Positions 1,251 through 1,722 of a stretch of DNA of 8,330 nt are shown in pieces; the first letter of the stretch is position 1; each line of letters begins with the position of its first letter. The notes below the pieces were generated by a model. That model had not been told where the DNA came from. It worked only from the letters and a program-made list of their open reading frames with translations, and searched no databases. The DNA comes from a virus (Duplodnaviria; Heunggongvirae; Uroviricota; Caudoviricetes). The stretch lies in the IMG/VR virus record IMGVR_UViG_2537562231_000028, one strand, 5' to 3'. Made by a program: the position numbers and the translations under genes.

Positions 1251-1295
1251 AAAACCAGTAAAAACTACGAAAACCATGTAAAACCGTCGTATAAT
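1251..1295 (+). promoter_or_regulatory. Four phased A-tracts at 10 bp period ending in a perfect TATAAT -10 hexamer (1290-1295)
   Basis: AAAACCAGTA / AAAACTACGA / AAACCATGTA / AAACCGTCGT at 1251-1290, then TATAAT at 1290-1295. Helically phased A-tracts predict intrinsic curvature. No good -35 hexamer seen. Confidence 0.35.
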
Positions 1296-1319
1296 TGCAT
1301 CAAATTTAACGACAAGGCT

Positions 1320-1571
1320 GTGAAACATGAAACCGTTAAGATGCAAAAAAATATCAGATGCAATTGCGACGGGCTGCAACTGGCCCTGATGGTTCAGCAT
1401 GAATTTTGGTCAACCTACGATCCAGAGGACAGAACGACGGCCCCATCAAAAAAACAGGTAGTAGACTTTCTGGTATCCCGTGGCGCTTCCAGAAATCTGG
1501 CGGTAAGTATTGATAAGGTCGTACGTCCGGCATCTATGAAGATCGGAGGCAGGCCCAAAAAATGGCGGTAA
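1320..1571 (+). CDS. Hypothetical small protein (76-83 aa); start uncertain (GTG 1320 or ATG 1341); could instead be a noncoding transcript
   Basis: ORF sits between a candidate promoter (TATAAT 1290-1295) and a strong intrinsic terminator (1582-1605). RBS is weak at both candidate starts and no family is recognised. Confidence 0.3.
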   Translation: MKHETVKMQKNIRCNCDGLQLALMVQHEFWSTYDPEDRTTAPSKKQVVDFLVSRGASRNLAVSIDKVVRPASMKIGGRPKKWR

Positions 1572-1581
1572 CAATCCTAGA

Positions 1582-1605
1582 AGCGGCAGAAATGCCGCTT
1601 TTTTT
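1582..1605 (+). terminator. Rho-independent terminator
   Basis: Perfect 7 bp stem AGCGGCA / TGCCGCT with GAAA loop (1582-1599), followed by a run of seven T (1599-1605). Confidence 0.7.
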
Positions 1606-1631: not shown

Positions 1632-1722
1632 AAAAAACGGTGTATACCGTTTAAAAACGGTGGGAACTGTTTTTACCCATATCCGATGATTTACCGTATT
1701 TGTCACCGGAATACACCGGATT
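1632..1722 (+). promoter_or_regulatory. Operator-like repeat cluster upstream of alpA
   Basis: Direct repeat AAAAACGGTG at 1633-1642 and 1653-1662; palindrome AACGGT-GTAT-ACCGTT at 1636-1651; dyad AAAAAC-N10-GTTTTT at 1653-1674; tandem CACCGGAAT / CACCGGATT at 1704-1722. GGTGTAT (1640-1646) recurs inverted as ATACACC (1711-1717). Confidence 0.4.

Follow-up and report, generated by a model that had tools for sequence, protein, structure and literature searches.

A promoter-ORF-terminator unit between int and alpA of an Escherichia coli phage satellite is predicted to encode a stand-alone domain of an unannotated, alpA-linked protein family

The window analyzed here is an 8,330-nt stretch of the viral record IMGVR_UViG_2537562231_000028 (Caudoviricetes), running from the ATG of a P4-type tyrosine integrase gene to the stop codon of a capsid homolog. 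Our subject is a compact unit of promoter, small open reading frame (ORF), and terminator that lies between the integrase gene, int, and the regulator gene alpA. Megablast located the window in 277 of 5,426 complete Escherichia coli genomes, on the chromosome every time; strains with the island include E. coli Nissle 1917 and ATCC 25922, both with copies of 99% identity. In a record of 100% identity, it forms part of an island of ~8.5 kb between a tRNA-Pro gene (beside yejM) and yejO. The gene order is int, a hypothetical gene, a helix-turn-helix (HTH) regulator, YlcI/YnfO on the minus strand, an Icd-like gene, several hypotheticals, DUF4222, primase, terS, and capsid, and the Pfam assignments are concordant. 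Because its primase shares 97% identity with the one of EcCICFT073, an experimentally studied phage-inducible chromosomal island (PICI), we consider the window to be a PICI-type phage satellite. Its gene content agrees with what defines Gram-negative PICIs, namely int, alpA, pri-rep, genes for packaging or capsid interference, a small island, and a specific att site.

The features of the unit and its two neighbors all lie on the plus strand. The int gene (1–1242) encodes a protein of 413 aa with the Pfam domains Arm-DNA-bind_3, Phage_int_M, and Phage_integrase, which PGAP calls an integrase adjoining tRNA-Pro. Straight after its stop codon comes the palindrome CTGTACAG (1243–1250), in which CTGTACA is invariant in all eight E. 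coli loci compared. Four repeats of the form (A)AACCA[G/T]nn, phased at 10 bp (1251–1289), then lead up to a −10 hexamer, TATAAT (1290–1295); their periodicity and conservation mark them as a candidate operator or upstream promoter (UP)-like element. The 5′ leader (1296–1340) is short, unstructured, and hypervariable, with an in-frame GTG at 1320 and an out-of-frame ATG at 1327. The coding sequence proper (1341–1571, stop TAA at 1569–1571, alternative start GTG1320) specifies 76 aa and is annotated by PGAP as the hypothetical protein WP_001171357.1; we did not find WP_001171357 mentioned in the literature. A Rho-independent terminator (1579–1605) closes the unit, and an alpA-type winged-HTH regulator of 68 aa follows at 1739–1945. 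This AlpA matches PF05930 (E = 0.0035, below the gathering score) and the PHROG “excisionase and transcriptional regulator,” and PGAP names it an HTH regulator. We judge it somewhat probable, with modest confidence, that the unit, equipped with a promoter and a terminator of its own, is monocistronic and codes for a protein, a stand-alone, basic, HTH-like partner of the int–alpA switch.

The original prediction had proposed that the unit could specify a regulatory RNA rather than, or in addition to, a small protein, and had named the comparison of synonymous with nonsynonymous variation in homologs as a check. E. coli genomes carry copies of the region at 94% and at ~70% identity. We fetched seven copies, each located at a tRNA-Pro gene with the small ORF between int and alpA, and aligned these with the window (eight loci) from the int stop to the alpA start; selection statistics were computed over the conserved core, codons 10 to 76. 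Between the window and six distant copies (L003–L008), the proportion of synonymous differences (pS) was 0.80 to 0.85 and that of nonsynonymous differences (pN) 0.175 to 0.184. The 94% copy (L002) differed from the window by seven synonymous changes and one nonsynonymous change. Variable columns numbered 20, 12, and 46 at codon positions 1, 2, and 3, respectively; pN exceeded pS in the +1 and +2 frames, and the ORF frame alone was free of stops in 8/8 loci. Among 14 protein variants in the protein database, replacements are conservative after a variable N-terminus of ~10 residues, and copies covering at least 80% of the query are present in 352 E. coli genomes. These comparisons indicate that ORF 1341–1571 is a protein-coding gene under codon-level purifying selection.

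The rival reading is that the transcript itself is functional, alone or beside the peptide. Transcription is predicted to start near 1302 and to yield an RNA of ~300 nt, and the compact arrangement of promoter and terminator would suit such an RNA, as would the weak ribosome-binding sites at both starts. The latter, foreseen in the original prediction, were confirmed for the window allele, with anti-Shine–Dalgarno duplex energies of −2.6 kcal/mol at GTG1320 and +0.4 kcal/mol at ATG1341; the distant allele group, however, has a strong AAGGAG Shine–Dalgarno sequence (−8 kcal/mol) 8 nt ahead of a GTG start. Because synonymous sites are saturated while amino acids are kept, there is no nucleotide constraint beyond coding. 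The 277-nt transcript body (1302–1578) shows no excess structure relative to shuffles (z = +0.61), and the leader, hypervariable in sequence, folds with a minimum free energy of only −2.5 kcal/mol (z = +1.1). Rfam gave no match in the window at E ≤ 1 and none in 1100–1800 at E ≤ 10. The original prediction had set codon-level purifying selection, together with proteomic detection, against its own RNA proposal, and the first of these is what the homologs display (pS ~0.80, pN ~0.18). We conclude that the codon-level test largely refutes a regulatory RNA at this position, which we now regard as highly improbable, even though the idea has real precedent in a curated structured RNA, RF02996, that occupies the equivalent place between int and alpA in related islands and is absent from the window. 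Near the start of the gene, an out-of-frame ORF of 20 codons (1327–1389, encoding MKPLRCKKISDAIATGCNWP) begins at ATG1327, 9 nt after AAGG, and ends in a TGA that shares bases with an ATG in the frame of the main ORF (TGATG, 1387–1391), a layout that might couple the two translationally. As a source of a conserved peptide, it was discarded; an ATG in the same frame occurs in the other loci, and the peptide is not conserved as judged by eye on the alignment.

The four A-tracts at 10-bp phasing that run into a perfect TATAAT, as the original prediction described them, can be read directly from the sequence. Their A-runs start at 1251, 1260, 1270, and 1280, and the period-10 self-identity of 1249–1289 is 0.58, compared with 0.33 ± 0.07 in shuffles, ~0.1% of which score as high. 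The −35 element is poor (ACGAAA, 3/6) and there is no TGn; with only three of six −35 positions matched, a consensus sigma-70 scanner did not call a promoter at 1290–1295. Bare TATAAT occurs in the window at chance frequency (5 observed, 3.7 expected), so it is conservation that makes the promoter credible. The hexamer is TATAAT in seven of the eight loci and TATAGT in one, and the block 1243–1299 is 81% identical between the E. coli allele groups, whereas pS between these groups is 0.40 to 0.53 in the last 300 nt of int, 0.49 to 0.56 in alpA, and 0.80 in the ORF. The promoter block is thus conserved beyond the local neutral rate. Identity falls to 39%, with indels, across the leader and N-terminus and is 67% over the ORF core. 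A second TATAAT (1605–1610), directly after the T-run of the terminator, shares with the first a repeat of 11 nt (TATAATTGCAT and TATAATTCCAT), is not retained by the other allele group, and is probably fortuitous.

In diverged copies, the array reads, in rows of ten, AAACCAGT / CAACCAGT / AAACCATG / AAACCATC, followed by GTATAAT. What stays constant is AACCA, within which CC is invariant, rather than A-run length, and the two proximal AAACC units are invariant across the E. coli loci; on this alignment, the “A-tracts” are better described as a sequence-specific repeat. Upstream A-tracts stimulate promoters through the alpha subunit, and helically phased A-runs at about −14 to −51, in front of a perfect −10 and a −35 matching at 3/6, could provide nothing more than intrinsic curvature or an UP-like boost to a −35-poor promoter, without any protein operator. 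This explanation is compatible with a protein-coding gene, and we hold it to be a real possibility while leaning against it. The A-runs shrink in diverged copies (ACAACCAGTG) while AACCA is kept, the CC after the A-run is invariant in the two proximal units, and EcCICFT073, with a different int/alpA allele, has a different 10-bp array (GAACAAC ×6) in the same place, which suggests allele-specific protein recognition. Because AACCA and its CC are constant and A-run length is not, protein recognition is favored over pure curvature, although an UP-like effect may contribute. The original prediction had also offered the curved DNA as a site for IHF or for recombination directionality, and neither suggestion was supported. 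The IHF consensus WATCAANNNNTTR has no match anywhere in the window, and AAACCA[G/T] is found nowhere else in the island or the att flanks, being confined to the array at 1251–1289. Since the motif is unique and the IHF consensus lacking, the array does not appear to be a shared Int-arm, recombination directionality factor (RDF), or IHF site.

The strong terminator that had been noticed downstream is fully borne out. Its hairpin (1579–1602) has a GCGGCA/TGCCGC core that extends to 10 pairs and is followed by seven T residues (1599–1605); it is in the list of the terminator scanner, folds with −15.1 kcal/mol (z = −4.8), and lies ~284 nt past the −10. The scanner listed none on the plus strand in 1243–1578, that is, int has no terminator of its own ahead of the small ORF, and 1579–1605 should therefore stop read-through from int as well and part both transcripts from alpA. 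The terminator region is only 48% identical between the allele groups. The other group forms a different hairpin (AATAGCGGCC...GGTCGCTATT plus T6–7) of equal strength (−14.3 kcal/mol), which indicates that the function has been kept though the sequence was replaced. Together with the 81% conservation of the promoter block, this agrees with the earlier description of the unit as self-contained.

The predicted protein has a mass of 8.7 kDa and an isoelectric point (pI) of 10.0 and consists of three helices and a basic tail, GGRPKKWR; the AlphaFold2 confidence (pLDDT) was 80 for the small protein and 92 to 98 for the domain with a deeper alignment. The ORF had been said to belong to no recognizable family. 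For curated libraries this stands, since Pfam, NCBIfam, PHROGs, and PADLOC gave no match to the 76-aa ORF. A word-indexed protein search returned only E. coli proteins, and an exhaustive hidden Markov model (HMM) search found 641 proteins at E ≤ 1e-3. A large, uncurated family of these HMM relatives thus exists, here called family X, with at least 641 clusters at 50% identity. Query positions ~5 to 74 align to the C-terminus of proteins of mostly 190 to 380 aa. Among the 147 listed representatives with a domain match (one repeat-protein artifact was set aside), lengths have a median of 224 aa, and the domain invariably forms the extreme C-terminus; no more than 10 measure 110 aa or less, and the number of stand-alone members is an upper bound because the “83-aa” Salmonella member (L013 5551–6252) results from a gene call that cut short a 233-aa ORF beginning with GTG. 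Full-length X has a variable N-terminal domain of ~130 to 300 aa, which the window protein lacks; by these alignments the latter is the C-terminal domain standing alone. The consensus of the family reads FWstYDPxDptTAPTNxdVixWLxxrGvSkrxAeamAtILRpdgLptGpR, and the sources (Pectobacterium, Salmonella, Kluyvera, Xenorhabdus, Oceanospirillaceae, Zoogloeaceae) are annotated as hypothetical throughout. When 100 full-length members were searched, there were 0 Pfam, 0 NCBIfam, and 0 PADLOC matches, and one member matched a PHROG of unknown function.

Some matches proved misleading. PDB sequence matches were spurious matches to ankyrin-repeat motifs, and the same artifact lies behind the top HMM hit, P0019. 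The ORF was also considered as an AlpA homolog and rejected; it has no Pfam match, and the lone “AlpA family” homolog, P0018, is a chimera in which a deletion has fused X to AlpA. This 90-aa protein, filed as “AlpA family [Cooperia oncophora],” has the N-terminal half of X followed by the C-terminal half of AlpA and represents E. coli island sequence inside a nematode assembly, probably as contamination. A Zoogloeaceae member, P0020 (L017 6001–7158), contains two X C-terminal domains in tandem.

To place family X in its genomic context, we inspected 13 loci from organisms other than E. coli; the genome pattern scan used a narrow domain alignment, the broad one being too diverse. The next gene downstream of X is alpA in 11 of the 12 loci with visible downstream sequence, and the next gene upstream is a P4-type integrase gene in 10 of 13. 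Among other Gamma- and Betaproteobacteria, the order int–X–alpA recurs in Pectobacterium, Salmonella, a Kluyvera-like contig, Oceanospirillaceae, Enterobacter, Erwinia, Serratia, and Sedimenticola. Two of the remaining loci have restriction-modification genes directly upstream of X, of MmeI type in L017 (2171–5629) and of type III in L018 (1146–5755); in the former alpA still follows X, and in the latter the contig ends right after X. The sole integrase in view at L017 is of a different type and on the opposite strand, and there is none on the L018 contig. The restriction-modification genes point to a hotspot for defense cargo just upstream of X.

These arrangements bear on the possibility that the small gene is moron-type cargo, an independently transcribed accessory gene (for example, for anti-phage defense or host modulation) that happens to fill the int–alpA gap and has no part in island regulation. 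Its own promoter and terminator would fit such a gene, and the gap is variably filled, being empty in EcCICFT073 and occupied by an unrelated ORF in EcCIMP1. That ORF, EcCIMP1_002, is considered a possible accessory gene by its authors (PMC11773190), and in PICIs of Gram-positive bacteria the stretch from int to stl houses accessory genes (PMC6092414). Yet X stands directly upstream of alpA in 11/12 loci across genera, and the restriction-modification cargo lies upstream of X, not between X and alpA. PADLOC yields no match, and tblastn of X against 50,697 phage genomes gave none. X thus appears, from its position, to be tied to alpA, unlike free cargo, and we consider the cargo explanation unlikely.

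Six X-bearing loci contain a match to RF02996, the “int-alpA RNA,” at 40 to 60 bits against a gathering score of 35.8 (L012 5917–5985, L013 5468–5535, L014 1682–1750, L016 5914–5980, L019 369–433, and L025 3397–3466), and one further locus has a sub-threshold match (L023 3394–3464). The RNA sits between int and X and ends 15 to 20 nt before the start codon of full-length X, the distance to the GTG of the 233-aa Salmonella ORF being 16 nt. Its consensus fold comprises 16 pairs, seven with compensatory changes. Although typed in Rfam as a small RNA (sRNA) gene, RF02996 is on this positional evidence probably a cis-acting 5′ leader of X and not a free-standing sRNA. The window itself has no RF02996 match (E ≤ 1 for the whole window, E ≤ 10 for 1100–1800). 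In other genera, most islands with X carry P4-type immunity RNAs (isrK, c4-a1b1, C4 antisense RNA) downstream of alpA (L014 4445–4670, L020 6244–6444, L021 6078–6318, L022 5263–5479, and L025 4720–4903), and Rfam finds no isrK/C4 immunity RNA in the window at E ≤ 1; family X therefore spans P4-like and PICI-like satellites.

The Salmonella island, whose Int and AlpA are 79% and 64% identical to those of the window, carries both full-length X (233 aa) and the RNA leader. In the simplest history, both the RNA leader and the N-terminal domain would have disappeared from the E. coli lineage, where selection maintained the C-terminal domain. The same relationship can be read differently, with the 76-aa ORF as a decaying remnant, the functionless 3′ end of a full-length X gene left after a deletion. 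The closest full-length relative does share the int and alpA lineage, and among the E. coli copies there are some with a frameshift or with a deletion that joins them to alpA (P0015–P0018). A remnant is nevertheless hard to reconcile with purifying selection between two deeply diverged E. coli allele groups, with a start, promoter, and terminator that are intact in both, and with the spread of nearly complete copies through 352 genomes. We regard decay as very unlikely.

For a protein-coding partner of int and alpA, the known biology of AlpA suggests a setting. AlpA activates the cycle of E. coli PICIs as well as its own expression (PMC6092414), and similar behavior was found for EcCIMP1 (PMC11773190). 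AlpA is switched on by the helper phage via an unidentified inducer, the existence of a repressor is unclear, and uncontrolled AlpA expression damages the cell (PMC6092414). In the mechanism we propose, the C-terminal domain retained in E. coli would be expressed from a −35-poor promoter that the four AAACCA repeats, in phase with the helix, either help or control. The protein, HTH-like with three helices and a basic GRP tail (8.7 kDa, pI 10), would serve as a DNA-binding or recruiting cofactor of the int–alpA switch, and its likeliest role would be to set a threshold for alpA expression or to regulate its own gene via the array. Transcription of int and X would be halted by the terminator short of alpA, the expression of which triggers island induction. 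Coding, constraint on promoter and terminator, family membership, and synteny are the parts of this account that the comparisons establish at the level of sequence. We infer that X functions as a partner of int and alpA; DNA binding, the target, and the direction of regulation are put forward as parts of that proposal.

Several observations weigh against it and against a plain model of operator binding. X is missing from EcCICFT073 and EcCIMP1, both functional PICIs, and is therefore dispensable for the PICI life cycle. Only in the E. coli lineage and at one other locus is X clearly followed by a strong terminator. The tail of the window protein, KIGGRPKKWR, may be an AT-hook (a GRP core flanked by basic residues), and the strict GRP core is found in only 21 of the 147 representatives, the usual tail being LPTGPR. 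The most conserved residues (FWSTYDP..TAP and the tail) lie outside the putative recognition helix and are constant across islands with different int/alpA alleles, a constancy that speaks for a conserved protein partner no less than for DNA binding. Finally, the eight E. coli loci fall into two deep allele groups, and the selection test on them amounts to one deep comparison plus shallow ones.

The layout of the unit could also be that of a leader and not a gene, in which AlpA would join RNA polymerase at the promoter with the repeats and let it read past the terminator into alpA. The repeats occupy the spacer of the −35 and −10 elements and the DNA upstream of them, a strong terminator precedes alpA, and PICI AlpA activates its own expression (PMC6092414); Pseudomonas aeruginosa AlpA works by such antitermination (PMC7969949, PMC9371919), as does lambda Q. 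The P. aeruginosa protein, however, is Q-like, with eight helices in more than 140 aa and an N-terminal ring, whereas the window AlpA is a winged HTH of 68 aa. No conserved −10-like pause element is present, the initially transcribed region being hypervariable; EcCICFT073 has no terminator before alpA; and the ORF is under coding selection. On the domain architecture of AlpA and the missing pause element, we rejected Q-like antitermination, to which we assign hardly any probability.

A bolder extension of the coding account is that X is the missing regulator of satellites of the Gram-negative PICI type and of those with P4-type integrases. A variable N-terminal sensor would be coupled to the conserved C-terminal domain, the int-alpA RNA would be a cis-acting 5′ leader and not a trans-acting sRNA, and X would gate alpA, and thereby induction, in response to the helper phage. 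The 76-aa E. coli form would then be a minimal, constitutive version that acts via the AAACCA array or the alpA-proximal repeats. We offer this as a speculative scheme that is quite unlikely to be correct in full.

The alpA-proximal repeats belong to a neighboring regulatory block outside the unit, the 113 nt upstream of alpA (1626–1738), which is 79% identical across the allele groups. Two direct repeats of 20 bp, AAAAACGGTGTATACCGTTT and AAAAACGGTGGGAACTGTTT (1633–1672, plus strand), are each an imperfect palindrome and together supply four AAAC[G/A]GT half-sites in alternating orientation at a spacing of 9 to 11 bp, nearly invariant across the groups. Closer to alpA are two 10-bp direct repeats, TCACCGGAAT and ACACCGGATT (1703–1722, plus strand), with an invariant CACCGGA. 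The motif CACCGGAW is also present in the attL flank (CACCGGATAT, CACCGGAAAG, CACCGGATAA, and more), where three to five further copies spaced at 10 to 11 bp lie between tRNA-Pro and int (L001 12584–12700, outside the window). CACCGGAW is a candidate site for AlpA, as RDF or autoregulator, or an arm-type site for Int. A 26-nt string, TTTTAGTTATACGTTTAGTTATACGG (a tandem of TTTAGTTATACG), is found near both island ends (L001 12714–12739 and 21400–21425, outside the window), and two inverted copies of it (CGTATAACTAAA) lie just upstream of int; these strings may be arm-type or terminal recombination sites.

The small gene itself is ordinary and already in RefSeq as a hypothetical. What is new is an unannotated, widespread family positionally locked upstream of alpA, the master activator of Gram-negative PICIs, and the reassignment of the orphan Rfam int-alpA RNA as the probable leader of the X gene. 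This alpA-linked family and the RNA reassignment offer a useful lead for the study of satellite induction.

Comparison with known systems places the unit among several that resemble it in part. RF02996 occupies the same niche, between a P4-type integrase gene and alpA in proteobacterial islands, and is a bioinformatically predicted structured RNA; the window unit instead encodes a protein. Phage morons, which are inserted among backbone genes, share the compact cassette of promoter, ORF, and terminator and its occurrence in only some relatives of an island, but X is fixed beside alpA across genera, unlike free cargo. Master regulators of staphylococcal pathogenicity islands and PICIs, such as Stl, combine DNA binding with a variable phage-sensing domain, and full-length X likewise has one conserved and one highly variable domain and sits in the regulatory junction beside int. 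The likeness is one of logic only, without similarity of sequence or fold; X is co-oriented with int and alpA, not divergent, and the window protein lacks the variable domain. P. aeruginosa AlpA and the lambdoid Q proteins act at the same kind of promoter with embedded repeats, followed by an intrinsic terminator before the regulated genes, and differ in that the window AlpA has no Q-like N-terminal domain and the window no conserved pause element. Two proposed counterparts were rejected, EcCIMP1_002 as an equivalent of X because it shows no similarity, and SEN1998 of ROD21 because it is an unrelated RDF located elsewhere in its island.

The closest studied relative is EcCICFT073 (Fillol-Salom et al. 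2018, PMC6092414), which shares the backbone of YlcI/YnfO, Icd-like gene, DUF4222, primase, and capsid homolog and has alpA downstream of int. It differs in the int–alpA gap, which holds neither an ORF nor a terminator, and in its int (24% identical), its alpA allele, and its repeat sequence. Related GACACAA repeats are found upstream of its alpA (L011 9440–9500). Both islands have a 10-bp-phased array directly after the int stop. That of EcCICFT073 (L011, E. coli CFT073, 9185–9245) consists of six exact 10-bp GAACAAC units, with a period-10 self-identity of 0.68 versus 0.33. Phased arrays after int, with allele-specific sequences, therefore seem to be a feature of these islands.

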